NCBI GenBank assembly: GCA_019240835.1
Contig: JAFAXQ010000246.1
Span: 1 to 61,070 of the forward strand
Direction: 5' to 3'
Origin: Ktedonobacteraceae bacterium
GTDB taxonomy: Bacteria; Chloroflexota; Ktedonobacteria; Ktedonobacterales; Ktedonobacteraceae
Length of the DNA: 61,070 bases
This document shows, one piece after another, positions 8,082-61,070 of this stretch (its first letter is position 1; each line of letters starts with the position of its first letter). The position numbers and the translations under genes were made by a program. The notes beneath the pieces are model-generated. The model saw only the letters and a list, made by a program, of their open reading frames with translations. It did no database searches and was not told the DNA's origin.

Positions 8082-8130
8082 TGGCATAACTCGTCTACGA
8101 TCTGCCTATCCCAGGCGAAACGAGCATTGT

Positions 8131-19799: not shown

Positions 19800-19812
19800 C
19801 TGTTTCTCCTTT

Positions 19813-20664: not shown

Positions 20665-20779
20665 CTAACGTTTGTTGCCTTTCAAAAAGTCTTATCATCA
20701 ACGGTTAGGGTGAAAGCATTTCCCTTTAGAAGGTCAGGAAACTGTTTCATAAAAACTTGACACTGTATTGATGAACTTA

Positions 20780-20808
20780 ACAATAGCAGAGATGAAATGA
20801 TTATGCAA
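20780..20808 (-). promoter_or_regulatory. Candidate sigma70-type promoter for the H-NOX/decarboxylase pair
   Basis: On the minus strand: TTGCAT, 17 nt, TATTGT, about 110 nt upstream of the ATG at 20664. Confidence 0.4.
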
Positions 20809-20872
20809 TCCTACCGCTGTGTCTGTGGTACTTTCATCACGTCTTGGCAGAGTATCGATCACTCTTTACCTA

Positions 20873-21880: not shown

Positions 21881-21924
21881 TTTTGATACCCCTTTCCACG
21901 GCTTACGGCGAGTTCAGAACCTTG

Positions 21925-23208
21925 TCAGTTCATAGGCGAGAGCACTGGCCGTGCATGTACATGCACAGGTGGTCGTATGTCGGGCCAGAAGGTTCTGCGG
22001 TAGTTAGTAGGTAAAATCTTACGTCGATAAATCATTTCCAAGTAGGGTGTGCCACGCGTTCCGCCCGTTCCCGTCGTCGCTTCCGCAGGAAGATAGTGCC
22101 GTGCTATTCCCAAGTGCAGGCACCGCCAGGCATACAGCGCCTGATCTAGTGCCGCCGCCTGGGCAGCGAATGCCGTTGCGCCGGGGGGAGTATTCCCTTC
22201 CACTGTGCATAAGACCGTGCGGAGGTCGACAAAGCGAGGGTGGCCATAGAACACGAGATCAGCAATCTCCGGTGTGGCCGCAAAGTTCTCGGCGTTACGC
22301 TCATCTAGACCCGCGGTGAATATTTGCATGAGTTGGTAGGTGCGAGACTGTATGGCACTTGCATTTCCTGTGGCATCACGGAATTTGGCGAAGTGCTCTG
22401 GAGGCATCGTCTTGAACATCTGAAACAAGGGGACGAGTACTTTTGCGAAAGTGACCGCATCCGATAGGTGGGCAGCGGCTGAATCGAGTTGTCCGCACTT
22501 CGCACTCTCGATGGCAGCAACAACGCCTGCCAAAACCGCCCAGAAGATGCACTCAGAGATGTGGATGGTGCGCAAGAAGAGGAATTCATCGTGTTCCTGT
22601 GTCTGAGGCAGAGCAGTGAGGTAGAGAAGGGCCAAGGTTCGACTTTCATCGAGAGTATAGCTGAACCAGTCATCGGGAGGCGCATCCATCTGAATGCGTG
22701 CAAGCAGTTGGAACTGTACGTTTGTGAGTTGCGCATGTAGTTTCTGGAGAAGGTGAACCCGTCTATCGACAACGTGCAAGTCACAGCTTTGCTGTTGCCA
22801 AGGCTCTACTTGCGCCAGGGAACACACTTCAAATGATAGGAGATCTTGCAACAGCACCTGAATTGCCATCCAGCAGCGAGCACGCACAGTGGACCAAGTA
22901 GCGCGTCGGGTTGTACCCAGCACCCAGTTCAAGACGTGAATATTGGTATAGGCTGGATAGCGTGGTTCTGGGTGGTTCAGGAAGAACCATTCGGAGAACA
23001 GTACTCGTTCGGCCAAGTCAAGTGTGGTGGCAAGTTGTTTTGAAGTGAACGGTTCTTTTTGGCGGAACCAATGAATCTGTTCGTAGAGAGTTGCTGCCCG
23101 GTGTCGGAGTTCTTGGTCAAGGCTGGCACGGCCCTGACTACGCGAGAATCCAATGTACTCACGCACAGAGAGCTGCCGCAAGGCATTTCTAATCTGGTCT
23201 TCTTTCAT
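21925..23208 (-). CDS. Tryptophan 2,3-dioxygenase-superfamily heme protein with roughly 200-aa N-terminal extension
   Basis: HDEFLFLRTIHISE, FAKFRDATGNASAIQSRTYQLM and WRCLHLGIARHYL...GTGGTRGTPYL match TDO signature blocks, including the proximal-His context. Confidence 0.65.
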   Translation of the reverse strand: MKEDQIRNALRQLSVREYIGFSRSQGRASLDQELRHRAATLYEQIHWFRQKEPFTSKQLATTLDLAERVLFSEWFFLNHPEPRYPAYTNIHVLNWVLGTTRRATWSTVRARCWMAIQVLLQDLLSFEVCSLAQVEPWQQQSCDLHVVDRRVHLLQKLHAQLTNVQFQLLARIQMDAPPDDWFSYTLDESRTLALLYLTALPQTQEHDEFLFLRTIHISECIFWAVLAGVVAAIESAKCGQLDSAAAHLSDAVTFAKVLVPLFQMFKTMPPEHFAKFRDATGNASAIQSRTYQLMQIFTAGLDERNAENFAATPEIADLVFYGHPRFVDLRTVLCTVEGNTPPGATAFAAQAAALDQALYAWRCLHLGIARHYLPAEATTGTGGTRGTPYLEMIYRRKILPTNYRRTFWPDIRPPVHVHARPVLSPMN

Positions 23209-43147: not shown

Positions 43148-44734
43148 ATGACAGTCATACTTGATGGAGTCAATCTGAAACTGCTAGACATTCTGAGAAT
43201 CGCCCAAGACCGTGTTCCTTGTGAGATTCCCAGCAGTGTTATGATGAAGGTTACACATTCACGCCGCTTGTTCGAAGATATCGCCTCACAAAATATCCCG
43301 ATTTATGGTGTCACCACGGGTTATGGAGAAATGGTGTATATGCTCGTGGAAGCAGACAAAGAAAGCGAACTGCAATCCAACTTGGTACGCAGCCATTGCG
43401 CCGGTGTTGGACCACATTTCAGTGTAGAAGAAGCAAGAGCCATGCTAGCCGCACGTGTCAACGCGTTAGCTCGTGGATATTCCGCTGTCAGACCGGAGTT
43501 GATCAAACGGATGCTGCTGTATCTTAATGCAGACATTATACCGATTATCCCTGAAATCGGATCTTTAGGCGCAAGTGGAGACTTGGCTCCACTTTCCCAT
43601 ATAGCCATTACGCTGATGGGGGAGGGGTACGTCTTCCACCACGGACGGAAAACACCGACCAAGGAAGTGTTACAAGAACGTGGGATCACTCCACTGCAAC
43701 TCAAGTTTAAAGAGGGGCTAGCTCTCATCAACGGTACTTCCGCCATGACGGGGTTGGGCGCATTGGTTGTCTATAAAGGGCTAGAGCAGGTCAGACAAGC
43801 TGAAATCGTGTCTGCTTTAGTTCTACAGACACAAAGAGCATCGAGTAGCCCATTTCTTGCGGAAGGACATGAGCTTGCACGTCCGCACGAAGGGCAAATG
43901 AATTGTGCATACAATTTACGTCTATTAACTCAAGACAGTCAACTGATGAAGCCACACGAAGACCTACGCGCTGAGGCGTTGCATCAGAAATCTGAAACCA
44001 CTCAGGTGCATCGAACCAATGTCTACCTTCAGAAAGCATACACTCTGCGCTGTATTCCCCAGATACTTGGGGCTGTGCGCGATACATTGTCCCACGCAGA
44101 AAATACTCTAGAGATAGAATTGAATTCCTCCAATGACAATCCATTATTCTTTGAAGGGCAGGAGATCTTCCATGGAGGGAATTTCCATGGACAACCTGTT
44201 GCTTTTGTTCTCGATTTTGCTACGGTTGCCTTGACTCAACTTGGTGTCGTTTCTGAACGACGAACCAATCGTCTATTAAATCGTCATCTGAGTAATGGAC
44301 TGCCTGAATTTTTGGTGAAAAGCACCCCTGGCTTAAACAGTGGTTTTGCTGGCACACAATATACTGCGACAGCTTTGGTCGCTGAGAACCGTACGATTGG
44401 ACCTGCAAGTATTCAAAGTATTCCATCTAATGGAGATAACCAGGATGTGGTGAGTATGGGACTGATCGCCGCACGCAATGCTAGACGCGTGCTGACCAAC
44501 AACAACTATATTCTGGCAGTGGAATATCTGTCCGCTGCACAGGCAGTAGATATTGCTCAGTGCTACGATCGCCTGAGTAAGGCTGGAAAAATTACCTACA
44601 AAACAGTCCGCTCTCTTGCTGCAACATTGGACCAAGACCGAGATATGAGCGAGGACATTGAAGCTGTCGCCAGAGCTCTGTCGAGAGGCGAATTTTTAAA
44701 GGTTGTTGAGGAGGCAGAGATCCGGCTGATGTAA
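43148..44734 (+). CDS. MIO-dependent aromatic/histidine ammonia-lyase or aminomutase
   Basis: [14 protein letters not shown] (Ala-Ser-Gly MIO triad). [11 protein letters not shown] carries S-H at the specificity-switch position. Confidence 0.85.
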
Positions 44735-44822
44735 AATTAGAAACTGCTCTAGCATCGTTTATCGGAGTGCGAACTTACCTACAGACACAGCAAGACTTGA
44801 CTCTAAGGAGGCAAATACACAC

Positions 44823-46394
44823 ATGGCTACGACCCAGGATGGCTCTCCAGCAAGAGAGCAGACTGCAATCCGTCCTTTCACAGGAGCAGAGTATTTGGAG
44901 AGCTTACGCGATGGCCGTGAGGTCTGGATCTATGGAGAGCGGGTGAAAGATATCACCAGCCACCCGGCTTTTCGCAACAGCGCACGCATGCTTGCTCGGC
45001 TTTACGATGCTCTGCACGATCCTGCCAAGCGCGACGTACTCACGACCGCGACTGATACTGGCAGTGGTGGCTACACCCACAAGTTCTTTCGAACTTCCAG
45101 AAGCGCAGAGGAGCTCGTCGGTGCTCGTGATGCCATTGCTGAGTGGACACGGATGACCTATGGCTGGATGGGGCGTACTCCCGATTACAAGGCTAGCTTT
45201 CTTGCGACCCTCGATGCCAATGCCGAGTTTTATACTCCCTACCAGGCGAACGCCCACCGCTGCTACAAAGAAGCTCAGGAGAAAGTGCTCTACTTCAACC
45301 ATACTATTGTCAATCCCCCGGTCGACCGTAGCCTCCCACCAGAGCAGGTGGGCGATGTGTACCTCCATGCCGAGAAAGAAACAGACGCGGGCATTGTGGT
45401 AAGTGGGGCCAAGGTCGTGGCGACTGGCTCAGCTCTGACCCACTACAATTTCGTTGCCCATCATGGGCTACCCATCAAAAAGAAGGAGTTTGCCATCATC
45501 TGTACCGTTCCCATGGACGCTCGTGGGGTGAAGCTGATCTCGCGTGCGTCCTATGAGATGACCGCAGCAGTCATGGGTAGCCCCTTCGATTACCCGCTCT
45601 CCAGTCGTCTAGACGAGAATGACGCCATATTCGTTTTTGACAAGGTGCTCATTCCATGGGAAAACGTCTTCGTGTACGGGGACTTGGACAAGGTCAATAC
45701 CTTCTTTCCAATGTCCGGCTTCATTCCCCGCTTCACCTTGCAAGGCTGTGTGCGTCTCGCGGTAAAGTTGGACTTTATCGCTGGGCTTTTCCTGAAAGCT
45801 GTAGAGGCGACTGGAGCCAAGGACTTCCGTGGCGTGCAGGTGCGCATCGGTGAAGTGTTGGCATGGCGAAACCTATTCTGGGCACTTACCGATGCCATGG
45901 CTCGCACACCTACTCCCTGGAATAATGGAGCAGTGCTTCCTAATCTCGACTATGGCATGGTCTATCGCGTGTTCGCCACGGTCGCCTACCCGCGTATCAA
46001 GGAGATCATCGAAAACGATGTTGCCAGTGGGTTGATCTACTTAAACTCCAACGCCGTGGATTTCAAGTCGCCGGAGATTCGCCCCTACTTGGAGAGGTAC
46101 GTGCGGGGATCCAATGGGTACACAGCGGTGGATCGGGTCAAGCTCATGAAGCTACTCTGGGAGGCGATTGGGACTGAATTTGGGAGCAGGCATGAACTGT
46201 ATGAGCGCAACTACGCGGGCAACCATGAGGACATCCGGCTCGAAGTCCTCCAAGCAGCCATGGCACTCGGTCAGGTCAATCAGTACAAGGGTTTCGCCGA
46301 GCAGTGCTTGGCCGAGTACGACCTAGATGGCTGGACGGTGCCGGATCTCATCAACCCGGATGATGTTAATGTACATATGAGGAAGTTCAAGTAG
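44823..46394 (+). CDS. HpaB-family two-component flavin-dependent aromatic hydroxylase (oxygenase component)
   Basis: N-terminus [34 protein letters not shown] and the length typical of 4-hydroxyphenylacetate 3-monooxygenase. AAGGAGG SD. Confidence 0.8.
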
Positions 46395-46469
46395 GCGCTA
46401 CGCGCACGTCGGTAGACCAGTAGCAACGACGGGAGGGGAGGAGCGCGCACGGCCTCTAAGGAGCAACGT

Positions 46470-46958
46470 GTGGAGCCACAAGTTTTTCGTCAGGTCATTG
46501 GCCACTTCGCCAGTGGCGTCACGGTGATCACAGCACGTGAGCACGGCACCAACTACGGCCTGACAGCCAGCGCTGTGAGCTCACTCACGCTTGAACCGCC
46601 GATGCTGCTGGTCTGTATCAACAAGAATACTGGCACACAAGCCGCCATCAGCCGCACCCGCGTCTTTGCCGTCAACATTTTGAATGAAGGTCAGGCCGAC
46701 CTTGCCTACAAATTTGCGAAACCGCAGTCTGACAAGTTTCAAGGCGTCGAATTCTGCTACGGTCAATTCGGTGAACCGCTGCTAGCTGGCGCATTAGCTC
46801 ACATTGAATGCCGCGTTGTCACCGACGTTGAGGCTGGAACACACCGAGTCTTTCTGGCAGAGGTTGACCAAGCCAAATCCTATGTTGGCTCACCGCTGAT
46901 CTACTTCCGTGGCAAGTTTGGGTACTTTGATCAGGCTGAGAGGCTGTATGAAAGTTAA
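46470..46958 (+). CDS. NAD(P)H-flavin reductase (HpaC-like small component)
   Basis: FRQVIGHFASGVTVITA flavin-reductase-domain pattern. GTG start with an AAGGAG SD 7 nt upstream. Confidence 0.8.
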   Translation: MEPQVFRQVIGHFASGVTVITAREHGTNYGLTASAVSSLTLEPPMLLVCINKNTGTQAAISRTRVFAVNILNEGQADLAYKFAKPQSDKFQGVEFCYGQFGEPLLAGALAHIECRVVTDVEAGTHRVFLAEVDQAKSYVGSPLIYFRGKFGYFDQAERLYES

Positions 46959-46972
46959 CAGGAAAATACCCT

Positions 46973-47374
46973 ATGTTCGAGCAGACTATACAAAGGTACT
47001 TTCAAGCTCTGGAAACTTCTGATTATGATGGATTAATGGAGCTGTTTGCTCCCGAGGCAGTGGTTTTTTCTCCCTTGTATGGAGAAAGAAAAGCAGTGGA
47101 GTTCTATCAGGAACTCTTCAAAGACACCGCCTCCTCGAAGATCACCTTGTTGCGTGTCTTTGAGAGTGGAACGACTGGAGCCGTCCTTTTTCGCTATGAT
47201 TGGGTTCTCAAAAATGGAACTTCTACGTTTTTTGAATGCGTTGATATTCTCGAGTTCTCGCAGGGAAAAATACAGAGCCTAAAAATCATTTATGATACCT
47301 CTCCCGTTCATATTCTCCTCAGCACCTCGAAGCCCAGTACAGTGGAGGGGACTGCTGGCGAGGTGGCTGCCTAA
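46973..47374 (+). CDS. NTF2/SnoaL-like small protein
   Basis: YFQALETSDYDGLMELFAPEAVVFSP is the typical SnoaL-like opening; 133 aa. Confidence 0.6.
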   Translation: MFEQTIQRYFQALETSDYDGLMELFAPEAVVFSPLYGERKAVEFYQELFKDTASSKITLLRVFESGTTGAVLFRYDWVLKNGTSTFFECVDILEFSQGKIQSLKIIYDTSPVHILLSTSKPSTVEGTAGEVAA

Positions 47375-47469
47375 TGCTACATCCGCTGTCGGGAGCTTGA
47401 GCATGTTGTTCCTTGAGGAAGCTCGTTTTTAGCTGACCGCGCCGATCCCGTCCATCGGCTGCTACTGGC

Positions 47470-49062
47470 TCAGGCTCCGTTCGCGGGCGGAATGCTTTGT
47501 GCGAAATGGAAAAAATTGTTGGGGTCATAGACAGCCTTGACATGCTGCAGCCGTGGCAGATTAGTGCCATAATACGCGTGCTGCCAGTCGGCCAGATCTG
47601 GATCAATGTAGTTCTGGTATGCCTGCCCGCTGGCGTACGGGCGCATTGACTGCCACGTCTCGGTCAGCCAGGAGCGATTCGCTGCGGCGATGGAAGCAGG
47701 GTCGCTCGCGTTCCAGCCTGCCGTGTACTGGGTGGAGAACAGCGCGTTGCGGTGTACAAAAGCTGTCGCGTCGGCGGCCACGCGGTTGATCGCGCCGCCA
47801 TTCGCATCGAGCAAGATGCCGCCCGCACCTAGCGTGGAGGCTTGGCGGCGAGTGATCGCGCTCACCAAGGCGTCGATACCCTGGCGCGGCAGAGCGTGGG
47901 TGAAGTAGTCGGACTTGGCAGCGGAGGTATCTCGCTGCAACTGGCCTTGTGGATTCTGGCTGGGCAAGTGGCATTGAGCCACGGTCTTACCAGAACAGCC
48001 TGCCTCGGTCAGCATAGTATCAAGCAGGTTGTTAGCCCCTACGAAGCGGCTTGTGGGTGCTGTGCTGATGCGGCTGGTCAGCCGTTGCAGTAGCGGGTTC
48101 AGGGCTGCAACAGTGCCTACATAGACGCCGTTCAGGCGCACGATTGGAGCGGAGCGCTTGTCGTTGGTGGCCAAGAGTAGGCAGTTGGACCACAGCTCAT
48201 CAGGCATCACAGGTGCCCAGCCCTGCCAGGCATCGACCACAGCAGCAGCGCTACTCCACGGCCAGTCCAGCGTGAACAGTGACAACGTGGAGACCGGGTG
48301 TGCTCGGAATGTGAACGAAGTGACCACGCCGAAGTTGCCACCGCCACCGCCACGCAGTGCCCAGAATAGGTCAGAATGGTGGCTCGCGTCGCAAGTGAGC
48401 ACGCGGCCATCGGCTAGGACAACCTGTGCCGCGAGCAGATTGTCACAGGTCAGGCCGAACTTGCGACCCAGCACACCAACTCCACCCCCAAGGGTTAGGC
48501 CAGCGATGCCCACTGTCGGGCAGGAGCCAGCGGGCAGTGTCAGCCCCTGCTGCGCAAGCGTCGCGTAAACGTCGATCAGTCGTGCCCCCGCTCCCACCGT
48601 AGCGGTGACAGTGCTCCTATTCACTGTCACCGCACTCATACGGGTCACATCTAGCACCAAGCCAGTAGTCGTCGAATAGCCAGCGTAGGAGTGGCCACCG
48701 CCGCGAGGTGCCAGGGGCAAAGTGAAGCGTTGCGCGAAGGCGAGGCACTTCTGGACATCCGCAGGCGAGGCGCAGTAGGCAATTGCGGCTGGCAGAATAC
48801 CGTCAAAGCGCGTGCTAAAGAGTTGGTGTGCAGTCGGGTACTGTGGACTATTCGGTCGGACTAGCGTCCCCCGCAGGCTTCTGGCGAGCGCCGCCCAGTC
48901 GGCGTCGCTGGGTGATGGTCCCTTGGAAGGGCTTGACGTCGCACTGGCGGAACTTGACTGCCCATTCTGGCAGGCGGACAGCAGCCCTGGCAACGCTGTT
49001 AGGGCGCAGAGTGCTAGAAACTCACGGCGTTTTATCTGTTGTGGTGGAATAGTGTCTGTCAT
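47470..49062 (-). CDS. Secreted (Tat signal plus lipobox) FAD-linked oxidase with BBE domain
   Basis: KRREFLAL twin-arginine motif and LLSAC lipobox. GGGHSYAG and GSCPTVGIAGLTLGGG are bicovalent-FAD-type His/Cys contexts. C-terminal YQNYID...YDPNNFF BBE motif. Confidence 0.8.
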   Translation of the reverse strand: MTDTIPPQQIKRREFLALCALTALPGLLSACQNGQSSSASATSSPSKGPSPSDADWAALARSLRGTLVRPNSPQYPTAHQLFSTRFDGILPAAIAYCASPADVQKCLAFAQRFTLPLAPRGGGHSYAGYSTTTGLVLDVTRMSAVTVNRSTVTATVGAGARLIDVYATLAQQGLTLPAGSCPTVGIAGLTLGGGVGVLGRKFGLTCDNLLAAQVVLADGRVLTCDASHHSDLFWALRGGGGGNFGVVTSFTFRAHPVSTLSLFTLDWPWSSAAAVVDAWQGWAPVMPDELWSNCLLLATNDKRSAPIVRLNGVYVGTVAALNPLLQRLTSRISTAPTSRFVGANNLLDTMLTEAGCSGKTVAQCHLPSQNPQGQLQRDTSAAKSDYFTHALPRQGIDALVSAITRRQASTLGAGGILLDANGGAINRVAADATAFVHRNALFSTQYTAGWNASDPASIAAANRSWLTETWQSMRPYASGQAYQNYIDPDLADWQHAYYGTNLPRLQHVKAVYDPNNFFHFAQSIPPANGA

Positions 49063-49211
49063 AGGTTGTACGAATTGTATTCTACAACTTTTCTTGTGTT
49101 TGGAGACATCATAGCATGTCGTACTAGTGATAGCAACTCACCATTTACTTTGTCAGAAATAGCTTTTGCTTCAAGTCACCTCACCTAGCATTTGTTGTAT
49201 GATCTCAATCG

Positions 49212-49613
49212 TCATCGCCCAGGTGCTGATCCTGGCTCTCTCAGTGTTCTATGATCGATCCCTGCTAGCTCTACCAAGCTGATGTTATCTGCGGCTTGCC
49301 TAGGGGCGGCTGCGTATGTCTGACTGAGCGTAAGAGGCACATGGGGATCCTCGGTTCCATGAAGAAGCACTTGCCAGACTCCTAGTGGCAGCAGTGCAGC
49401 CGGAGAGGCAAGAGCAGAGCGTGCGGGAACCTCATCGAAACTGCCACCCAGGAATGCGGAGACAACGCCATTGCCCACGTTCGGCCGCCATGCTAGCTCC
49501 AGATCAGGTAGCCCTGCAAGGCTGCATTGCTCTGGCGCTGTTCCATAGGCATGTCGTACGGGAGGAGTTTTTGCTGGGTGAGTCGGCACCCTTTCATTTT
49601 GTCCCGAACCCAT
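49212..49613 (-). pseudogene. Probable remnant (C-terminal part only) of an alpha/beta hydrolase/peptidase
   Basis: Only the LLHGTEDPHVP...GIDH C-terminal catalytic Asp/His region is present. There is no nucleophile region or credible N-terminus. Confidence 0.4.
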
Positions 49614-49663
49614 AGTGTTTCCTCATCTCTATGTGGGGAAACGATTCCTGTACGAAAGCGCCG

Positions 49664-51877
49664 TCACATGTCAACAAACACATCTGCCAGCCTCATGATC
49701 CGCTGCTCGTCAGGCCAAGTTTCACGAGCTTTTCTCCAGACAGTGACCGCTTCCTGCCGCCGCTTCTCGCTTCCCAACGCCTTGGCTCCTGCGACTCCTG
49801 CTAGCAGATAGTGTTCAAATTCCTCCATATTGCCTGCTCCAACCGCCGCTGCCGCCTGGTGGTTGATGATCTCAATACGAAGACGCTCAGGGACGACGAT
49901 GGGTCTAGGAAGCTGGTCAACTTGTGCGAGCTTGCTTGCAGCTTCTTGGTAGCGATCATAGGCACGCGACGGGTTATCGTACCTCTCTTCATGATTCGCT
50001 AGAGCAAGGTTGCTCAGTCCTTCAAACAAAATCACCTGAAAGAGACCATAATCCGTCGAGAGGAATACAGGAATTTCTCTGACTACCTCTGGGAAAATGG
50101 CCCGTGCCTCGCTGATCGAACAAAGTGCTTGCTGGACTTTCCCATTTTGTGCATAGCCGTGAGCCAACTCAGCATATGCCTTGCTCCGCACGAGGAGCGG
50201 TAGAGTATCGTCTCTCTCCTTCACATCACTGTAGAGGAGTGCTTGTTGGCAAGTCTGTAACATTTCCGCTCGTTGTCCATTAGTGTAGAACGCATCTCCG
50301 AGATGAGTAAGAGCTGTGACGAGCAGGGTTTGATCTCCTGCTACATGAGCATACTCCACTGCTTGTTTACAGCAAGCCACTCGTTCAAAGAAACGAAGTC
50401 GATGCAGAGCCACTAAACCCAATAGCAAGTACCCTTGAGCGGCAAGGTAGGCGCTTTTTTGTTTATAGGTAGGAAGTTGTTGGATCAACGCGGTCAGCAC
50501 GGGTAAATACTTAGGCAGTACATACTCGACAGTAGATAATCCATCTCCCCGGAGTAGGTGCCAGCACGCCGTGATGCTGGCGCTACATTGGGCCAGAAAC
50601 TCTTCCAGGAGCAGGGCGGTGAGAGGTCCCGCTTGCACTTTGGTCAGCAGGGCAGCAGAGACCGTCGCCAGCGTCGTAAGAGCCAGGCGTCGCCCTAGCA
50701 GCACGTCACTGCTCGTCTTGCCAGCCTGATCGCTCATGGTGTTCCATCTCTCTATCTGCTCGTGCAGCAGGGCTTGCACGTGGGAACAAGCGAGCTGCTG
50801 TTCTTGCCAGCCAGCCAGCACTCCCTTCAGCACGTCGACCTGCTCACTGAACCAGCTTGGCCAATCGCACACCTCCACACGTCGTGGCGAGGGGTCGAGC
50901 ACCAGATGGGCAGGCACCAGCACTCCGCTTTCTGCTGGCAACAACGGTTCTTGTCCTATTATACTAGCATGCTCAAGCGCACTATGCTCTCCCCGAACAC
51001 GTCGCCGCGTGATCTGTTTGGCGCGCAAATACTCCGCGATCTCCTGCGTGCGTGCATCAGGATCGCGCCCCTCTTCTTGCAATGCTTCAAGGGCCTGTTG
51101 ATAGCACGCTTCCGCCTCCTGGTAGCGCTCCTGCTCTCCCAGCAGTTCCAGCAACGGGCGCAACGCATCCTCATCAGTGGGATGGGCCTGCCAGTAGGTG
51201 TGCAATCGCAGTTCTGCCAGGGCATGATGCCCGTGCTGGCGGTAGAGAGTAGCCAGCCGATGCACACACTGCCGATGCTGCCCCTCTAGACGCGCACGCC
51301 GTGGCATGGCCCACGGGCTATAGCGTTCCTCGACCAGATACGTGCCCCGTGCGGCTAGCTGAGAGGCGACTTCCCACAGCGACAGCGCCTCCTCGCCAAA
51401 GCGCTCCAGGCGTGCAGCCTGCTCGACATTCCACGTAAATGCATCGGCATCCACCCAGATGTGCGGATAGGCCGCCAATTGGTAGCCGTTGCCATTGGCG
51501 GGGGTGCCTTGCCTGAGCAGCAGGACGTGTGTGCTGCCGGGTGGGCGCAACAGTTTGCGTAGGGCGTAGACCACATTATCCAGGCGTTTGGCAGCCGCTG
51601 TGCTACTGACTTCAGGCCAGAAGTGCTCCATGATCTCATCGCGCAGAGCGAAGCGATGGGGTTGGCTCAGCAGCAGTTTGAGCAGCCAGAGGGCAGCGGT
51701 GGCATCCTTGATAGCCAGGTGCTCTTCGCAGAGAGCGTTAGCGCAGCCGCGTTGCTGGTCAATCCACTCGATGTGCAGTGGCCCAAAGGTGTAGATGCGG
51801 ATGTGCGTGGGGCTGGCACGGTCAGGCTGGGCATGGGGAACTGGGGGGTGTGGCGTGGCGGTGTAGTCTGACTGCAT
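49664..51877 (-). CDS. SARP-family regulator (OmpR-type wHTH plus BTAD plus TPR-like C-terminal region)
   Basis: IRIYTFGPLHIEW..., BTAD helices (ALSLWEVA...RLATLYRQHGHHALAE...YQQALEAL), and a long helical-repeat tail. Start moved to MQSDY (51877) with a GGAAGGAA SD. Confidence 0.75.
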   Translation of the reverse strand: MQSDYTATPHPPVPHAQPDRASPTHIRIYTFGPLHIEWIDQQRGCANALCEEHLAIKDATAALWLLKLLLSQPHRFALRDEIMEHFWPEVSSTAAAKRLDNVVYALRKLLRPPGSTHVLLLRQGTPANGNGYQLAAYPHIWVDADAFTWNVEQAARLERFGEEALSLWEVASQLAARGTYLVEERYSPWAMPRRARLEGQHRQCVHRLATLYRQHGHHALAELRLHTYWQAHPTDEDALRPLLELLGEQERYQEAEACYQQALEALQEEGRDPDARTQEIAEYLRAKQITRRRVRGEHSALEHASIIGQEPLLPAESGVLVPAHLVLDPSPRRVEVCDWPSWFSEQVDVLKGVLAGWQEQQLACSHVQALLHEQIERWNTMSDQAGKTSSDVLLGRRLALTTLATVSAALLTKVQAGPLTALLLEEFLAQCSASITACWHLLRGDGLSTVEYVLPKYLPVLTALIQQLPTYKQKSAYLAAQGYLLLGLVALHRLRFFERVACCKQAVEYAHVAGDQTLLVTALTHLGDAFYTNGQRAEMLQTCQQALLYSDVKERDDTLPLLVRSKAYAELAHGYAQNGKVQQALCSISEARAIFPEVVREIPVFLSTDYGLFQVILFEGLSNLALANHEERYDNPSRAYDRYQEAASKLAQVDQLPRPIVVPERLRIEIINHQAAAAVGAGNMEEFEHYLLAGVAGAKALGSEKRRQEAVTVWRKARETWPDEQRIMRLADVFVDM

Positions 51878-51970
51878 AGCTAGTTCCTTCCGAGCAAGCA
51901 AGGTTACTGACTCTTGCTGACGTGCAGTATAGCACATCTTTGCTGCTTATGCTAGTGGCTCATGAATTTC

Positions 51971-53318: not shown

Positions 53319-54659
53319 TCATAGCGAGGGAAGAGGCTTGCGTCTTCGCGCTTCAAACCAGTTGAAGAGGTAGGCAAGCGTTACGAGTACGAAAAAAGCA
53401 TTGCGCACACTTACTGCTTGAATAAAGCCCGGCACGAGTGGAATAAGCAGCAAATCAACCGGACGGGTGTAGAGATACAAAATAAAGGTGGTGAGGAGCG
53501 AGATGCTACCCCATGCGAATAGCCAGAAAGCGTCAAAAGCACCGACATAGGCGAGCAGTGGAATAATCCAGATCAGATATTGTAGGCTAAAGACTTTTCC
53601 TGTAGCTATGAAGACGAGCAAAAGCGCAATGCTGACTTGTGCGATATCAAGGCGGCCTCGCCATTGCATCCACAGCGTATAAGCATACCCTATGATGAAG
53701 AGAAGCCCGCTTAGAAGTGAAACAAAACCAGCTAATTTACTACTAATGTTGAGCGAACCATACGTATAGGTAATCTGCAGCGGAACACCGAAGTGCATTG
53801 CCAGCCAGAGAAAAGTACTGCCAGTGGCTTCAACTTGTATGGGTCGCTGCACAAAATAGTTCAATTGATCGAGAACTGCTCCTTGAAAATTGAGCAGGGC
53901 GAATGCTCCTGTAACTGCTAATAGCATACCTAAAAAGAGCAACAGATTTTTCCAGTACCAGTCAAAGGCACCACGGAAAGTGAGCCAGAGATCGTGCGGA
54001 ATTGATGTTAGGGAAATGCTTGTAGGAGGTGTATAGAAACGTCCTCGCTCCTGCTGCTCTGCGATAAAAAGTGAGGGAAGAAGTAGGATAGGGTACAGCT
54101 TAAAGAGCACTGCGAAGGCGAGGGCTATGTAGGCCCAAGCCCAGCGCCTTTGTTCTGCTGCGATGATAAAGAGCAGTGTCAGCAAGGCTGGAATTAAATC
54201 GAAACGTATCTGTACTGTTGCTAGCGCCCCGATGAAGATGTACAGCACGAATATCAGCGCGGCCCCACGTGGCCCGTAACGTAACAATAGCCAGTAGATC
54301 AGGGCTGATGTAAGCGCCATGAGCAAGACAAATGCCATCTGATAATTGAGTAGGGGTGCCAGCAGTGCTAGCGAGAACAGTAATAGCGTAAGTGGTGGGT
54401 ATTCTAGTGGCAGCATATGGAATGCTGGCTGTGGTTGCGCAATGTGCAAGAATGCACATTGCGCTGGAGGAAGTAGGTGTGTTGCATCGCTGCCGAGCCA
54501 GAAGGTCAATGCGTAACATTGGTAGCGTGCTGGATCGGTTCTTGGTAAAAAGATTTGCCACGCGGAACTGCAGAAGGCAGCGATTGTCAGGAGAGTAATG
54601 GGAATATATGTTACGGTACCACTTCGTGCTAGCAAGGCATTCCACTTATCTCTCAACAA
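53319..54659 (-). CDS. Polytopic membrane protein, GT-C/DUF2029-like (possible glycosyltransferase)
   Basis: At least 10 hydrophobic segments and the length typical of DUF2029/GT87-like proteins, judged by pattern only. The start overlaps the NACHT gene stop by 14 nt. Confidence 0.45.
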   Translation of the reverse strand: MLRDKWNALLARSGTVTYIPITLLTIAAFCSSAWQIFLPRTDPARYQCYALTFWLGSDATHLLPPAQCAFLHIAQPQPAFHMLPLEYPPLTLLLFSLALLAPLLNYQMAFVLLMALTSALIYWLLLRYGPRGAALIFVLYIFIGALATVQIRFDLIPALLTLLFIIAAEQRRWAWAYIALAFAVLFKLYPILLLPSLFIAEQQERGRFYTPPTSISLTSIPHDLWLTFRGAFDWYWKNLLLFLGMLLAVTGAFALLNFQGAVLDQLNYFVQRPIQVEATGSTFLWLAMHFGVPLQITYTYGSLNISSKLAGFVSLLSGLLFIIGYAYTLWMQWRGRLDIAQVSIALLLVFIATGKVFSLQYLIWIIPLLAYVGAFDAFWLFAWGSISLLTTFILYLYTRPVDLLLIPLVPGFIQAVSVRNAFFVLVTLAYLFNWFEARRRKPLPSL

Positions 54660-57336
54660 CTGAGTCCTCCATCACACTTTGGACTGTGCTGAGGGAGGCG
54701 AGGTACTCAAGCAGCAAGTGGTGGATAAAGACGTAGCCTCCTCCTACCTTACGCAGCAGCAGTCGCTCACTGGCTTCATCCAGAAAGTGCGCATAGTTCC
54801 AGGGAGTATATCCCTTACCTGTGAGAATTACGCGCAAGACCATGTGTTGTAGGCATGCGTACCCCCCGTTGAGTAGGAAGAGGATCAAGGTGGCAATCAG
54901 ACCCAGGGGGACCGACCACAACAGTCCAGATGCAAGATCGGTAGGGATCAGCCAAAAAGAGAGCGCGAGGCTCAAACCAGTGAAGGCTAGGCCAATAGGA
55001 AATCCGATGAGAACGCCATTGCGTGCAGAAAGTCGGATGCCTTCATTCGGCCTGATATGGGTACGGTCTTCCAACAAGCGCCGCGACAATCCACCGAGCC
55101 ACCATCCTATGGCTGCACCAGCCAGTCCGCCGATGAAACCGCTAGTGAGCAGATGCATCTGCCACAAAGCAAAATTGAGGTAGACTTCATAGCCCAGCCC
55201 CACCGTTCCTCCCACCAGCATCCCAAGGAATCCTCCAAGCAACGAGATCGTCACCCGCCGTCGGATAGGTACTGCCGACCAGACGAGCGCCTCGACGGGT
55301 TGGATCTGTGTTTCTCGACCACCAACTAGGGTACCAGCCAGCCCTCCGATGAGTACTGCGGTCAATCCATAACTCAGTTCTTCTACGACCTGATTGTAGA
55401 CGCTAGAAGAGAGTGGACAAGGCACCCAGAGCAGATTGATCAGTACAAAGATTAACCCAAAGCTCAAGCCAAGCAGTGAGGTGATCACTCGTCGTTGGAT
55501 AGGTATTGCCGACCAGAAGCCAGTCTCGATAGACTTCATCCGTGTGTCTCTGTGGCCAAATAAACCACCAATCGATCCTCCCAGTAGCCCAAACCCCAGT
55601 CCGTAGGTGAGTCCGACAATTGAGAAGGGCAGGAAAAAGGCCAGCAGTTGTGCTCTTGTGCCAAATACTGGCAAGCCGTATGCGCATTGCGATGCTGTCA
55701 CGGCCGTGTGGGTCAAGAGCGCAAAAAGTTGGGCGTGGACAACCTCATACAGGGGGACATCGGCAAGCATAGCTGTTAGGCCTGCCAGCACCCCCACGAG
55801 CAGGCCTATGAACAGTCGACAGTACCATCGAAAAGCTCGAGGCTCCAAGAGCCAATTGGGTTGCATGCTCTCGATGTAGAACTCGGTCTGCTGCTGCCGC
55901 ACTAACTGCCGTGCCAGCCAGGCTAGGTAGCGCAGGGTTTGCGCTGCTGTATAGCAACTCTGGTTGCTCCGACGGGTGAGCAGCATATGCCTAACGTAGA
56001 CCGCAAAGACCTGGTGGCGTCGGGCCTGCAAGGAAAGCGGCTGTGGGAACGCATCGACCGTTTTGCCCTGGTAGGTCAGTGCCAGCATGCTCAACATCAG
56101 CGGGTTGCTCGCCAAATCGCGCAAGGCTGGATCCGCATGCAATGCCTGCTCTAATGCTGCTAGTTGCTCCCCGGCACTAGCCAGATACGCCTCAACCTGC
56201 TCGGAGGTGAGCGGTTGCACCACGACAGCGCGAGAGAGCAAAAGCCGTGCTGGCTGTGCGAAATACTCGTCCTGCCGACAGCACACCACTAGGGGTAGGA
56301 ACCCATGCTCCTGTCGATAGGCGTTGATGGTCTCGATACAGGCACTGCGACAGGTAGGTCTCACCTCGTCCAGACCGTCAAGCAGGGGTAAGATCTGCTC
56401 GGTCTGTATCCAGAACTGCGCCAGCTTGCGAGGAACCTGGTACTTGCTGTGCAGTTCCTCCTCTAACCAATCGCTCAGTGAGCATTGCTTCTGAGCCCAG
56501 GAGGACAGATTGAAGACGACAGGGATGGGATGGGTTTCATCCCGGTCCGCTCGGTCGAGTAGATTGCGAGCTAGCTCCAATAAGAGCGTCGTCTTGCCCA
56601 AACCAGGCTCCCCAAGAATGAGCAATTCGCCATTGATAGCATCGTAGACTTGACTGAGATCGGTACCCGGGGGCAAGGGCTGAGCGATCTGCTTGGGCTG
56701 ATACACGTGCCAGGGATTGGCTACTGCGTCGGCTCGCTCCTGCAATCCCAGGGCTATAAGAGGTGCCCCGTGTAAGGACTGCTCTAACACCCCGCTGATC
56801 CAGAAGGTACGCACTTTCCTGACCATCCGCTGACGATTCTGTTGGCTCATCGGAGCAGGTCCTAGCTGGGCTACCGATGTGGGTAGGTCCGCAACCAAGG
56901 AAGGCGACAGCTTGGCCAGGGAGTTCAAGGAGCCGATGGCTTGGCCGTTCGCGGAGCAGTCTATGCTGCTGAACAGGGCAGGACGCTGATCCGCTTCTCC
57001 CACTTGAGCGCTCCTAGTCTGCCCAGCAGTCTCTTGCTGTTGTCCAGGGATGGGGGGCGGCATGCTCTCCTGCTCAATAGAGCAGGGGAGCAACCCAAGC
57101 TCCTGGGCATCAAGGTCAAAAACGTCACACAGTGCGTGGCGATAGCGGGGACTAGGAAAGGAAATGCCACGTTCCCAGCGAGCGACAGTGCGGGGATCAG
57201 GCTCACCGGGACCGAAATCCGGCAGGCGGCTTATGCGTGTTGCAACCTCTTCAAGTGTCCAGAAACGCAGCTCCCGTTCCTGTTTCAACTTCTGATTTGG
57301 CTTCCCTTTTTTCTTTGGATAAGTCTGCTCTTTCAT
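54646..57336 (-). CDS. STAND NTPase: XRE-like HTH plus NACHT plus repeated multi-TM C-terminal region
   Basis: HTH (WTLEEVATRISRL...RTVARWERG), Walker A GEPGLGKTTLL, Walker B LLDGLDEV. Repeated TM modules (IETGFWSAIPIQRRVITSLLG and VEALVWSAVPIRRRVTISLLG) and a C-terminal FLDEASERLLLRKVGGGYVFIHHLLLEYLA. The ORF track extends to 57453, but that extension is made of an intergenic-looking repeat. Confidence 0.8.
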   Translation of the reverse strand: MKEQTYPKKKGKPNQKLKQERELRFWTLEEVATRISRLPDFGPGEPDPRTVARWERGISFPSPRYRHALCDVFDLDAQELGLLPCSIEQESMPPPIPGQQQETAGQTRSAQVGEADQRPALFSSIDCSANGQAIGSLNSLAKLSPSLVADLPTSVAQLGPAPMSQQNRQRMVRKVRTFWISGVLEQSLHGAPLIALGLQERADAVANPWHVYQPKQIAQPLPPGTDLSQVYDAINGELLILGEPGLGKTTLLLELARNLLDRADRDETHPIPVVFNLSSWAQKQCSLSDWLEEELHSKYQVPRKLAQFWIQTEQILPLLDGLDEVRPTCRSACIETINAYRQEHGFLPLVVCCRQDEYFAQPARLLLSRAVVVQPLTSEQVEAYLASAGEQLAALEQALHADPALRDLASNPLMLSMLALTYQGKTVDAFPQPLSLQARRHQVFAVYVRHMLLTRRSNQSCYTAAQTLRYLAWLARQLVRQQQTEFYIESMQPNWLLEPRAFRWYCRLFIGLLVGVLAGLTAMLADVPLYEVVHAQLFALLTHTAVTASQCAYGLPVFGTRAQLLAFFLPFSIVGLTYGLGFGLLGGSIGGLFGHRDTRMKSIETGFWSAIPIQRRVITSLLGLSFGLIFVLINLLWVPCPLSSSVYNQVVEELSYGLTAVLIGGLAGTLVGGRETQIQPVEALVWSAVPIRRRVTISLLGGFLGMLVGGTVGLGYEVYLNFALWQMHLLTSGFIGGLAGAAIGWWLGGLSRRLLEDRTHIRPNEGIRLSARNGVLIGFPIGLAFTGLSLALSFWLIPTDLASGLLWSVPLGLIATLILFLLNGGYACLQHMVLRVILTGKGYTPWNYAHFLDEASERLLLRKVGGGYVFIHHLLLEYLASLSTVQSVMEDSVVER

Positions 57337-57392
57337 CTCTTCAATTGCCTTCTTTTTAGCTTTAAGCTGCCACTTGCACTCTCTTCCCTGAA

Positions 57393-57506
57393 GGGGAATG
57401 AGAGTTGAGTAGGGCGGTTCGCACATATATAAACAATCTTTGCCATCCCTCATTATACGTATTCGGGGAATGAGAGTTAGGTAGGGCGTTCACACATGGA
57501 TAAACG
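57393..57506. repeat. Two copies of a 42-43-bp direct repeat, 72 bp apart
   Basis: GGGGAATGAGAGTTGAGTAGGGCGGTTCGCACATATATAAACA (57393-57435) versus GGGGAATGAGAGTTAGGTAGGGCGTTCACACATGGATAAACG (57465-57506). Confidence 0.85.
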
Positions 57507-57592: not shown

Positions 57593-57805
57593 ACAAATGT
57601 CATTCAACTGCCAGGGATGGTCCATGTATGCTTCCAGTGTCGAGACGATCCATGGTAGCCTTTGGAAAAACCAAGGCGTTTCAGGCCAAATTGGTCTAAC
57701 CACCAATGGACAGTTTACCTACCTAAATTTTGTACAACTTAGTGACACCTTGTTACTAATTTTGCAGGACTGTTTAGGTAGAAGTGATTGATTTAAGGAG
57801 AAAAG

Positions 57806-58003
57806 ATGAACACCGATTCTGGAGCTAACATTAACGACAGCAACAATCCTTTCAAGCTTGATGTACGCATTTTCCCCTCACACGACATTAGTCATGCTCA
57901 TGCAGCGGTGAAGCCTGCATCACCCGCGACGTGCCAGACGTGTCGAGAAAGCCAGTGTAGCTGGAGCGTCATCACTACTTGTTGGTCTTGTTCTGCCTGT
58001 TAG
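57806..58003 (+). CDS. lanA: Class I lanthipeptide precursor peptide
   Basis: AAGGAG SD. The leader has an F-K-L-D (FNLD-type) box. The C-terminal 24 aa TCQTCRESQCSWSVITTCWSCSAC carry 6 Cys and 9 Ser/Thr. lanC and lanB follow directly. Confidence 0.85.
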   Translation: MNTDSGANINDSNNPFKLDVRIFPSHDISHAHAAVKPASPATCQTCRESQCSWSVITTCWSCSAC

Positions 58004-58036
58004 CGTAGATAGACTTAGTAGTATCCCTGAGGTGAA

Positions 58037-58070
58037 TATGAAGCATGCTTAGAACTGAGTATGCTTCATA
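58037..58070 (+). terminator. Stem-loop between lanA and lanC (possible partial terminator or processing site)
   Basis: TATGAAGCAT-14 nt-ATGCTTCATA; no U-tract. Confidence 0.4.
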
Positions 58071-58098
58071 CCTCCTACCGTAGAGGACGGTTGTTTCT

Positions 58099-59484
58099 AT
58101 GTCTGAGAGAGTTCACCCAAAATATGCAGATTCTTTCATTGTTTGTCCTGCAGATACTAGAGAACCTATTTGGCATGCTATGGTCCCCTCCGTACTGCGG
58201 CAACGAGCCTTGGCGAACATACAAGTTATCGCTGAACGTTTGCAAAATCCTGAGTATATCCTGACCGTAGTAGAAAAGGCAAAAAAGCAGTCTCGGCTTT
58301 TTCATTGGGGGGGTGCTCTCTTCTCTAATAGCTTTGCAAGCGTTGCGCAATTCTATCTCTACCTGACACGTTGCCTTTCAGAACAGGCTTGGGAAGAACA
58401 TGCGCACAAATACCTACGTCTAGCGGCTCAGAGTACCCATCATTATCCGTTAGAAAAGCTTGGGCTATTTGATGGTAGTAGTGGCTTTGCATTGATTCTC
58501 TCTGCTTTCAGTGAACACGAGCCGCGCTATCATGAGACATACAATGAAGTCCAGGAGGAAATAGCAAGGCAAGTGCTGGCACGAAGGTGGAAGCGTCGTT
58601 ATTCAAGCGTAGAGGCGAGCGACTATGATGTCATGTCAGGTGTTTCCGGTATTGTTGGCTACCTTACCTCACTTCGATCTCCCAGTATCCATGTTGAAGA
58701 AGCGATCTTGAAACTCCTGGGCTATCTGATCTGGCTCAGCGACGAAGATCAGCCTGGCCGCAAAAATTGGTTTATTGCACCTGAGCATTTGCCTCTGGAG
58801 AGGTATCGTGAAGAGTACCCTGATGGATATTTGAACGTTGGCCTTTCTCATGGCATTGCTGGTCCCTTGGCTGCTCTTGCGCTGGCTTGGAAGGCCGGTT
58901 ATCGTATTCCTGGTCAGCGCGAAGCTATCGAACGGTTAAGTCAGTGGATCGTCGAACGTCAAGTGCAAGATGAATGGGGTATTAACTGGCCCACTGCGAT
59001 ACCTCTCCAGATGTCGCATAGTCCTGAACAATGGCGGATGCTTCCCTCGGCACGGGCAGCGTGGTGTTACGGCGCACCTGGTATTGCCTCTACCCTGTGG
59101 TTAGCAGGAGCTGCCTTACAGGATACGTCGTTGCATCAGATAGCGTTGCAGGCCCTTGAGACAGTTCTTCAACGTCCCATTGAGCAACGTAATATTAATT
59201 CACCTACAATCTGTCATGGGGTGGCAGGATTACTTGCTATCTGCCTGCGTTTTGCTCATGTATCACAAAGTCAGATCGTGCAAAAGCATATTTCGTTGCT
59301 CACTGAACAGATTTTGGGGGCTTGTCACTCCGATTTGCCACTTACTGTACAGGATCAGGAGAGCAATGGAATCTTTGTCGATGATCCTGGCTTTCTCACT
59401 GGTGCAATCGGTGTGGCATTAGTATTGCTGGCCGTGTGTACATCCGTTGAACCACAATGGAATCGTGCCCTTCTGATTGCGTAA
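58099..59484 (+). CDS. lanC: LanC-type lanthipeptide cyclase
   Basis: GLSHGIAGPL, WCYGAPGIA and ICHGVAGLL, the three LanC signature blocks that include the Zn ligands. Confidence 0.9.
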   Translation: MSERVHPKYADSFIVCPADTREPIWHAMVPSVLRQRALANIQVIAERLQNPEYILTVVEKAKKQSRLFHWGGALFSNSFASVAQFYLYLTRCLSEQAWEEHAHKYLRLAAQSTHHYPLEKLGLFDGSSGFALILSAFSEHEPRYHETYNEVQEEIARQVLARRWKRRYSSVEASDYDVMSGVSGIVGYLTSLRSPSIHVEEAILKLLGYLIWLSDEDQPGRKNWFIAPEHLPLERYREEYPDGYLNVGLSHGIAGPLAALALAWKAGYRIPGQREAIERLSQWIVERQVQDEWGINWPTAIPLQMSHSPEQWRMLPSARAAWCYGAPGIASTLWLAGAALQDTSLHQIALQALETVLQRPIEQRNINSPTICHGVAGLLAICLRFAHVSQSQIVQKHISLLTEQILGACHSDLPLTVQDQESNGIFVDDPGFLTGAIGVALVLLAVCTSVEPQWNRALLIA

Positions 59485-59527: not shown

Positions 59528-61070
59528 ATGGCGCAAGAGAAATATATAAATAATAGAGATCGTACGAGAATATATACTGCTGCAGGTTTTTGCCTTGTGC
59601 GTGCTCCTATCTTACCGGTCACTGTCTTTCAACTGATAGCTTCAGGGTCAGCTAAAGATACCACTATGGGGAAAAATCTTCTCACTAATCTTCCAGAAAT
59701 ACAACAGCGGAGTTATGATGTTTTAAGGTCTCTGGCTCCTGATCCATTTGTCACGCAGGCATTACTGGTGGCAAGCACTGACATATTCGAAGGATTGGCC
59801 ACAATTGAGCATGCTACTAGTTCAAATCGTCGTGTTGAGCGTGCATATTCTAGCCTTCTGCGTTATCTGACTAGAATGAGTACCCGTCCAACTCCGTTTG
59901 GCCTGTTTTCGGGCGTTGCGATAGCTACGCTGGGAGAATGTACAACGCTGCAGCTAGGTACACCTGTTGTACAAAGTTTGCGCACGAGACCCGGCATGGA
60001 GTGGCTTTTGTCTCTTATTCAGCAAATAGAGGAAGACAAAGCCTTGGTACCTCATTTGAATGTGGTAGCCAATCAGGCTGTGTATCTGGCTGGAGCACGA
60101 GCTATCCTTCCGTATGCAGACATCTACGGTACAGGTGATTATCGTGAGATTACGCTACGTGCTACACCGGCAGTATATTTTGTCATGGAGAACGCTCGTG
60201 CTCCAATTGCCTATAGTGAGCTAAAGAACGACCTTCTAGACACTTTTCCTCAGGCGGCCGAGCAGCAGGTTGAAGGCTTGTTGCAGCAGTTATGGGAGCA
60301 TCACTTCTTGATGAGCAATTTGCGTCCACCATTGACTAGTGCAGAACCCGAAGTTTGTGTTCTGGAGCAGTTGCGTAACAATCCTGCCTTAGCATCTTTT
60401 GCTTCCAGACTTGAGGAAGTGATTGAGCTAGAGAGGACGATTGATCATACTCCTATCGGCCAGGCCACGGCAAGTATATATCAAATGGTGGAGCGACAGA
60501 AACAGCTTGTGCCTGCGTCAGGAAGATCGCCCTTTCAAATTGACATGGGACTACATCTGGCACAAGCACAACTTAATAGAGAGGTAGGTGAGGCAGTCAT
60601 AGACGCGATTGAGGCACTGCTACGTATCTCACCACCACTCCAAGGTAGGCATCACTTGCAAGAGTACCTTACGGCCTTTCAAGAGAGGTATAGTCTAGAT
60701 GCAGAGGTACCCTTACTGGATTTGCTTAGCCCTGAAACTGGCCTAGATGCTCCACCAACCTATACTGAACCGCCTCGTGCTCATCCATTACCTGGTCTGC
60801 CTTTGCCTGATATGCGGGCCAGAGATAGTCTGTTATGTTCACTTCTCTCTGAAGCCTTATATCAACATGTGCAAGAGATTGAGTTAACAGATGAGCTACT
60901 CGAGCGGCTCTCCCAATGGAGGTCGCAAGAAATACCTCCTCCGCCGACGCTGGAAATGTTCCTGCAAATTCATGCGAAATCAAAAGAAGCTATTGATCGG
61001 GGAGAATGGAGAGGAGTCGTCGCTCCTGCCGGTATTGCCTATGGCGGACGTTCTTTTGGGCGTTTTTTCG
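59528..61070 (+). CDS. lanB: LanB-type lanthipeptide dehydratase, N-terminal (glutamylation) part; truncated by the window edge
   Basis: Not in the ORF track because it has no stop in the window. My translation from the ATG at 59528 (GAGGA SD) stays open to 61070. It contains FCLVRAPILP, RMSTRPTPFGLFSGV and GGRSFGRFF, typical LanB N-terminal motifs. Confidence 0.85.
   Translation, partial: MAQEKYINNRDRTRIYTAAGFCLVRAPILPVTVFQLIASGSAKDTTMGKNLLTNLPEIQQRSYDVLRSLAPDPFVTQALLVASTDIFEGLATIEHATSSNRRVERAYSSLLRYLTRMSTRPTPFGLFSGVAIATLGECTTLQLGTPVVQSLRTRPGMEWLLSLIQQIEEDKALVPHLNVVANQAVYLAGARAILPYADIYGTGDYREITLRATPAVYFVMENARAPIAYSELKNDLLDTFPQAAEQQVEGLLQQLWEHHFLMSNLRPPLTSAEPEVCVLEQLRNNPALASFASRLEEVIELERTIDHTPIGQATASIYQMVERQKQLVPASGRSPFQIDMGLHLAQAQLNREVGEAVIDAIEALLRISPPLQGRHHLQEYLTAFQERYSLDAEVPLLDLLSPETGLDAPPTYTEPPRAHPLPGLPLPDMRARDSLLCSLLSEALYQHVQEIELTDELLERLSQWRSQEIPPPPTLEMFLQIHAKSKEAIDRGEWRGVVAPAGIAYGGRSFGRFF

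Follow-up and report, generated by a model that had tools for sequence, protein, structure and literature searches.

A probable class I lanthipeptide precursor gene with a strongly constrained Cys-rich core in a lanA-lanC-lanB locus of Ktedonobacteria type

The lanA locus and its neighbourhood

The window analyzed here is a stretch of 61,070 nucleotides of contig JAFAXQ010000246.1, from a Ktedonobacteraceae bacterium. It closes within a group of three plus-strand genes, in the order lanA-lanC-lanB, the last of which is cut by the end of the window. The features of this region are as follows.

54646..57453, minus strand: divergently oriented gene for a 935-aa protein with HTH and NACHT (STAND NTPase) domains (PF05729, 3.6e-10; HTH_31, 2.8e-4)
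57795..57800, plus strand: Shine-Dalgarno sequence AAGGAG, 5 nt 5' of the lanA ATG, read from the sequence
57806..58003, plus strand: lanA, probable 65-aa class I lanthipeptide precursor, stop codon within the coordinates (translation and homologue)
57806..57928, plus strand: predicted leader, residues 1-41, ending ...K-P-A-S-P-A (boundary placed by the conservation break at S39-P40 against the Dictyobacter homologue)
57851..57862, plus strand: FxLD box F16-K-L-D19, followed by V-R-I (motif conserved among seven precursors)
57929..58000, plus strand: predicted 24-aa core TCQTCRESQCSWSVITTCWSCSAC (23/24 identity with the homologue in a Dictyobacter MAG)
58037..58070, plus strand: 15-bp stem-loop in the lanA-lanC spacer (RNA fold of 58000-58100: -32.2 kcal/mol, z -3.5)
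58099..59484, plus strand: lanC, 461-aa lanthionine cyclase (PF05147, E 2e-55)
59528..61070, plus strand: 5' part of lanB, 514 aa, glutamylation domain (PF04738, E 6e-108), cut by the window end

Translation of 57806..58003 gives the 65-aa product MNTDSGANINDSNNPFKLDVRIFPSHDISHAHAAVKPASPATCQTCRESQCSWSVITTCWSCSAC, followed by the stop codon. Its 24 C-terminal residues, TCQTCRESQCSWSVITTCWSCSAC, contain six Cys (positions 2, 5, 10, 18, 21 and 24) and nine Ser/Thr, which confirms the count given in an earlier note on this DNA. A six-frame scan of the 61-kb window for stop-free 24-aa stretches with at least six Cys and at least nine Ser/Thr returned the lanA core and one other, and no equally dense stretch occurred in 20 shuffles of the window. 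The other dense stretch, at about 12359-12451 on the minus strand (e.g. SACCTLICACFSTSVTFTCSATTC), runs antisense to a Pfam-supported flotillin/Band 7 gene (11470-12990), most probably as a frame open by chance. No curated family model matched the lanA peptide, either in Pfam (E<=0.01) or in NCBIfam (E<=1), and the product has no signal peptide. A sigma-70 promoter scan 5' of lanA gave no site, and tblastn found no second lanA copy in the window or in the homologous Dictyobacter locus (L001/L002, see below). Directly 5' of lanA, a 55-aa ORF (57624..57791, plus strand) has been called in three assemblies (L008-L010); it sits in the lanA promoter region and, having no similarity in related loci, was rejected as probably spurious.

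The earlier note had assumed that LanB and LanC adjoin the precursor, and this was borne out by profile matches to both and by the co-oriented gene order. LanC finds its structural matches in a LanC-like protein (PDB 8byk, 4e-42) and in NisC (2g02, 4e-28). LanC retains its catalytic His, H251 in SHG, as well as C323 in WCYG and C372-H373 in CHG as zinc ligands, all of them invariant with respect to the Dictyobacter LanC. After a gap of 43 bp follows lanB, in which the PF04738 match covers profile positions 2-440 of 649; the fragment matches MibB (5ehk, 2e-46) and NisB (5e-16), and also a thiopeptide-type dehydratase.

Attenuation or stabilization of the transcript is often seen 3' of lantibiotic structural genes. 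At the homologous locus (L001) a hairpin as strong as that of the window, unrelated to it in sequence, occupies the same lanA-lanC spacer, and by analogy the spacer stem-loop is possibly an attenuator or a transcript-stabilizing hairpin.

Upstream of lanA, on the opposite strand, lie the HTH-NACHT protein and a membrane protein, and farther away an epimerase, a SARP regulator and an aromatic-acid pathway. HTH signalling proteins also flank related clusters, namely an HTH-NB-ARC-TPR protein in L013 (7821-9620) and an HTH-WD40 protein in L012 (7705-9264). By this association the HTH-NACHT protein of the window could be tentatively considered a candidate regulator, or such proteins may simply be abundant in these genomes. 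No LanD, LanP, LanT, LanI or LanFEG gene was seen in the window, the DNA downstream of 61070 lying outside it, and no Peptidase_S8 gene was found in the window or in the related loci.

Other gene groups in the window

Two further groups of genes deserve mention. The region 43148-51937 encodes an aromatic amino-acid lyase (43148-44734), an HpaB-type hydroxylase (44823-46394), a flavin reductase (46470-46958), a SnoaL-like protein (46973-47374), a BBE/FAD oxidase (47470-49062, minus strand) and a SARP/BTAD regulator (49664-51937, minus strand). This is probably a separate small pathway, which resembles a module for hydroxycinnamate (caffeate-type) or related aromatic secondary metabolites. On the minus strand at 18300-23208 are found a PLP-dependent decarboxylase, an H-NOX/V4R protein, a class I Trp/Tyr-tRNA synthetase and a tryptophan 2,3-dioxygenase-like protein, which may constitute a tryptophan-derived pathway that includes a tRNA synthetase copy of its own.

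Leader peptide and cleavage site

LanC-guided context look-ups, together with a motif scan of the loci so identified (Ktedonobacteria-type contigs), yielded a set of seven precursors. An FxLD box is common to all their leaders: the motif F-x-L-D-[VI]-R-[IV] is found in 7/7 precursors adjoining related Ktedonobacterial LanC genes, and its F, L, D and R are invariant. The cores of the seven are unrelated in sequence, but Cys and [S/T]-C dipeptides abound in all of them. The FxLD box has long been recognized as a class I leader motif (PMC7268733), and F(E/D)LD leaders have already been noted for class I clusters predicted in silico in Ktedonobacteria (PMC6497799).

In the comparison with the single homologue, near-perfect identity starts at S-P-[A/P]-TCQ, and the leader that precedes it has diverged. 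This step in conservation provides independent support for the leader/core boundary of the earlier note, which would thus fall at about S39-P40/T42, and it makes the proposed cleavage before TCQ plausible, the more so with Pro at position -2. Pro at -2 is the usual pattern at class I cleavage sites, as in the nisin, epidermin, Pep5 and microbisporicin leaders. The analogy that had been drawn between A-S-P-A and the A-S-P-R of nisin holds for this Pro, but residue -1 is Ala (Pro in the homologue) and not Arg, and the site is therefore not of the NisP type. A His-rich stretch in the leader (SHDISHAHAA) had also attracted attention; it is not conserved in the Dictyobacter homologue, with H32 alone common to both, and was for this reason rejected as a functional element.

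A single homologue and selection on the core

The protein libraries searched derive from about 15 billion predicted proteins. One homologue only, P0002, came out of a word-indexed search of 5.8 billion protein clusters, and an exhaustive HMMER search over 1.84 billion representatives added no further true relatives; its three extra matches were rejected as long repetitive proteins with the alignment confined to the leader. A metagenome pattern scan returned the window's own locus and the same homologue, nothing else, and the core sequence is absent from the searchable literature. The contig carrying P0002 (L001) is identical to a sequence of a Dictyobacter sp. MAG (Ktedonobacteria; L002, DATJIE010000031.1).

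The core of the homologue, TCQTCRESQCSWSVITTCWSCSQC, is identical to that of the window at 23/24 positions. The leaders are alike at 19/41 positions (about 46%), and the adjoining LanC proteins are 64% identical. Over the 24 core codons we counted 10 synonymous differences and one non-synonymous difference. The Nei-Gojobori estimates for the window against the Dictyobacter homologue are given below.

Core: pN 0.043, pS 0.77
Leader: pN 0.345, pS 0.478
LanC: pN 0.208, pS 0.741

The low pN of the core relative to its pS argues that the peptide is translated and under very strong purifying selection, which at non-synonymous sites is about five-fold stronger than in its own cyclase. Judged from these two sequences, a core so close to invariant suggests that the product acts on a specific molecular target.

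The Dictyobacter locus (L001 10001-11697, identical in L002) comprises lanA and an intact lanC. No LanB was found within 10 kb on either side of this pair, nor any LanB remnant by tblastn, although lanA and lanC are both clearly under selection there; dehydration must be provided by a LanB elsewhere in the genome or by something else; the simplest reading is a LanB acting in trans. Just 5' of this lanA lies a 41-aa fragment of an FMN-dehydrogenase, probably a pseudogene (L001 9731-9856), and a convergent DUF2690 gene is located downstream of lanA-lanC.

Related Ktedonobacterial clusters and the continuation of lanB

The closest relatives of LanC and LanB come from Dictyobacter, Ktedonosporobacter, Ktedonobacteraceae MAGs and Thermosporothrix. 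A lanA gene lies just 5' of lanC, in the same orientation, in the window, in the Dictyobacter locus and in L012, and an FxLD precursor is located near lanC in L005, L014, L017 and L018. The highest identities to the window proteins were observed in L013 (LanB 66%, LanC 64%), where LanB is full-length (1098 aa, PF04738 and PF14028), followed by L012 (LanB 56%, LanC 57%), also with a full-length LanB. In both of these clusters lanB is followed by genes for a 605-616-aa ABC exporter and an MsnO8-family luciferase-like (LLM) oxidoreductase, and in L014 and L016-L018 lanC is followed by a full-length lanB. Neither LanD nor a subtilisin-type LanP was found in the related clusters with visible downstream genes.

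Since the closest clusters, L013 and L012, have a full-length LanB, the exporter and the oxidoreductase, the DNA beyond 61070 probably holds, by analogy, the rest of a full-length LanB (~1,100 aa), a NisT-like ABC exporter and an MsnO8-family oxidoreductase. An exact look-up of the LanC protein identified three other assemblies of the locus (L008-L010), none of which reaches past the window end. L008 (ENA ERZ27313884 k141_1392299) differs by 2 mismatches in 10,058 nt and ends at the same base in lanB. That an independent assembly should stop at the identical position suggests a repeat or a strain-variable segment just beyond 61070.

Several of the related loci have features of their own. L005 encodes a 98-aa precursor (8034-8330) with an FELDIRV leader and a core of ~48 residues with 13 Cys (GSVCHSACQGTCWNCTNGTCNQATCAASCAYTCVTCSCTCNTFLFICC); its neighbours are a frameshifted LanC and a split LanB, consisting of a 669-aa glutamylation protein and a 390-aa PF14028 protein. 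L014 (2208-12676) combines three LanC paralogues with a single full-length LanB; it also encodes a Trp-halogenase-like flavoenzyme and a divergent precursor with an FDLDVRI leader and a Cys-rich core of ~60 residues. In Ktedonosporobacter rubrisoli (CP035758.1; L011 9109-13262) a LanC of this clade (56% identity) stands alone; it adjoins an Rce1-like CPBP protease and an ABC ATPase, with no LanB or FxLD precursor nearby.

Proposed identity of the cluster

Taken together, the ORF at 57806..58003 is in all likelihood the lanA gene of a class I lanthipeptide and the first gene of a lanA-lanC-lanB operon on a Ktedonobacteria-type chromosome. It is co-oriented with genes for LanB and LanC, its leader contains the FxLD motif, and its core has Ser/Thr residues N-terminal to Cys at ring-forming distances.

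It is unlikely, in our estimation, that the cluster instead contains a split LanB of the pinensin or SapT kind, possibly with non-canonical stereochemistry, or that it specifies a thiopeptide-like or hybrid RiPP in which Cys residues are converted to azoles. Pinensin and SapT provide known cases of a split LanB (PMC9011353; PMC7268733), and the best matches of the word-indexed LanB search are split as well: P0004 (580 aa, 49%) and P0005 (669 aa, 44%), the latter encoded in L005 and followed there by a separate PF14028 protein. The abundance of [S/T]-C dipeptides in the core is moreover reminiscent of thiopeptide cores. A split-LanB system was for these matches our provisional assignment, but it was abandoned once the LanC-guided look-ups had uncovered the closer, full-length LanBs at 66% (L013, with both PF04738 and PF14028) and 56% identity (L012). 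An intact LanC lies directly beside lanA, whereas thiopeptide clusters, to our knowledge, lack LanC; furthermore, no YcaO or [4+2] enzyme was seen in any relative. Even in L005 the separate elimination protein keeps the NisB-like H-x-H-x-N-R-L motif, and it is thus of the canonical and not of the SptBb type.

Proposed maturation and ring pattern

For the lanA-encoded precursor as a class I lanthipeptide, we infer how it is modified, how many rings form and in what topology, where it is cleaved and how it is exported as follows. By analogy with class I biochemistry, the 41-residue leader would dock the precursor on LanB through its F-K-L-D-V-R-I box. LanB would then glutamylate Ser and Thr residues in a glutamyl-tRNA(Glu)-dependent manner and eliminate glutamate to give Dha and Dhb, to which the zinc enzyme LanC would add the Cys thiols, forming (methyl)lanthionine rings. 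The product would be exported by an ABC transporter, and a protease encoded outside the cluster would cut off the leader after S-P-A; such unclustered lanthipeptide proteases have been described (PMC8960859).

The possible rings were enumerated by listing Ser/Thr residues located 2-7 residues upstream of each Cys (core numbering).

C2: none
C5: T1
C10: T4 or S8
C18: S11, S13 or T16
C21: T16 or T17
C24: T17, S20 or S22

Such a partner is available to 5/6 core Cys, Cys2 having none. Because Cys2 lacks a Ser/Thr two or more residues upstream, at most five canonical rings (from Dhx to a downstream Cys) can form, and the six rings allowed for earlier are a matter of arithmetic, five being the realistic canonical maximum; a sixth would need a link in the reverse direction. 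Cys2 may thus be free, disulfide-bonded or part of an unusual reverse ring, and the surplus Ser/Thr residues would either stay in the dehydro form or undergo further modification. Should Thr42 be dehydrated without entering a ring, the N-terminus would be expected to carry a 2-oxobutyryl group, for which Pep5 provides a precedent.

A more far-reaching possibility, which we consider doubtful, is that the core represents an unprecedented class I cross-link pattern, with overlapping rings made from the [S/T]-C dipeptides and Cys2 in a reverse ring or other linkage, and that the lanA-lanC pair of the Dictyobacter locus is served in trans or by another dehydration route. Were this true, a core kept nearly invariant in hosts that have diverged deeply would suggest a conserved physiological role, e.g. 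that of a morphogen or signal in these mycelial bacteria, rather than that of a conventional antibiotic.

The C-terminal Cys had also raised the question of AviCys chemistry. Under that explanation the product would be an AviCys lantibiotic like epidermin or microbisporicin, with a LanD encoded past the window end decarboxylating Cys24 to build an aminovinyl-cysteine ring at the C-terminus. A C-terminal Cys is indeed present, is conserved in the Dictyobacter homologue and recurs in 4/7 of the related precursors, and the DNA downstream of 61070 lies beyond the window. Nevertheless, the flavoprotein/LanD family is absent from the window, including the 57 kb upstream of lanA, and there is no LanD in the clusters with visible downstream genes (L012, L013, L014, L016, L017, L018, L005 and L001). 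The spacing also departs from the usual one. The ring partner of the C-terminal Cys, a Ser/Thr or a Cys converted to Dha, usually stands at -3, and epidermin, gallidermin and microbisporicin have a Ser there, whereas position -3 is here occupied by Cys21, with Ser at -2 and -4. We therefore regard an AviCys product as very improbable.

Least credible of all is that the ORF is a chance or otherwise non-functional frame, or that it encodes a Cys-rich disulfide or metal-binding peptide unrelated to the neighbouring enzymes; such an origin would agree with the lack of Pfam and NCBIfam matches, with the existence of one homologue only and with the Dictyobacter locus having no LanB nearby, but it is opposed by the 10:1 ratio of synonymous to non-synonymous core substitutions, the Shine-Dalgarno site, the FxLD box that is invariant in the family, the recurrence of a precursor close to lanC (Dictyobacter locus, L012, L005, L014, L017 and L018), a Cys/Ser/Thr density matched in 0 of 20 shuffles and the lack of a signal peptide.

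Comparison with known systems and significance

The lanA gene and its neighbours resemble class I systems of the nisin, subtilin, epidermin and microbisporicin type in the FxLD leader, in Pro at -2 of the predicted cleavage site, in a core rich in Cys, Ser and Thr, and in a co-oriented PF04738 dehydratase and PF05147 cyclase with its zinc ligands. The core length of 24 aa and the possible ring number of five match those of microbisporicin and planosporicin. Unlike nisin-type systems, the genes stand in the order lanA-lanC-lanB, residue -1 is Ala or Pro instead of Arg or Gln, no LanP, LanD, LanI or LanFEG was seen in the window, and the core opens with adjacent Thr and Cys, leaving Cys2 without a canonical ring partner. 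[quoted passage not shown]

Zheng et al. (2019; PMC6497799) have predicted, in silico, class I clusters of Ktedonobacteria whose leaders have an F(E/D)LD motif, and the cluster described here is like these in bacterial class, as judged from the taxonomy of the homologue, in its F(E/D)LD-type leader and in its LanB and LanC; it differs in a core that is new to the searchable literature and has one relative in the libraries searched. With respect to the split-LanB systems pinensin and SapT, the more distant LanB relatives of the window (44-49%) are split, and among them L005 has a similar lanA-lanC-lanB order and an FxLD-type leader, whereas the nearest relatives (56-66%) are full-length.

As far as can be judged from sequence comparison, the precursor is very probably real, and its core new, orphan and unusually constrained. 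The finding poses no challenge to the current understanding of lanthipeptide biosynthesis and would not surprise a specialist. Ktedonobacteria are, however, an under-explored, actinomycete-like lineage from which no class I lanthipeptide has been characterized, and a core whose conservation exceeds that of its own cyclase is a reasonable target for heterologous expression and structural work. The value of the locus lies in providing a natural-product lead, as well as a further case of a conserved FxLD[VI]R[IV] leader joined to hypervariable Cys-rich cores.
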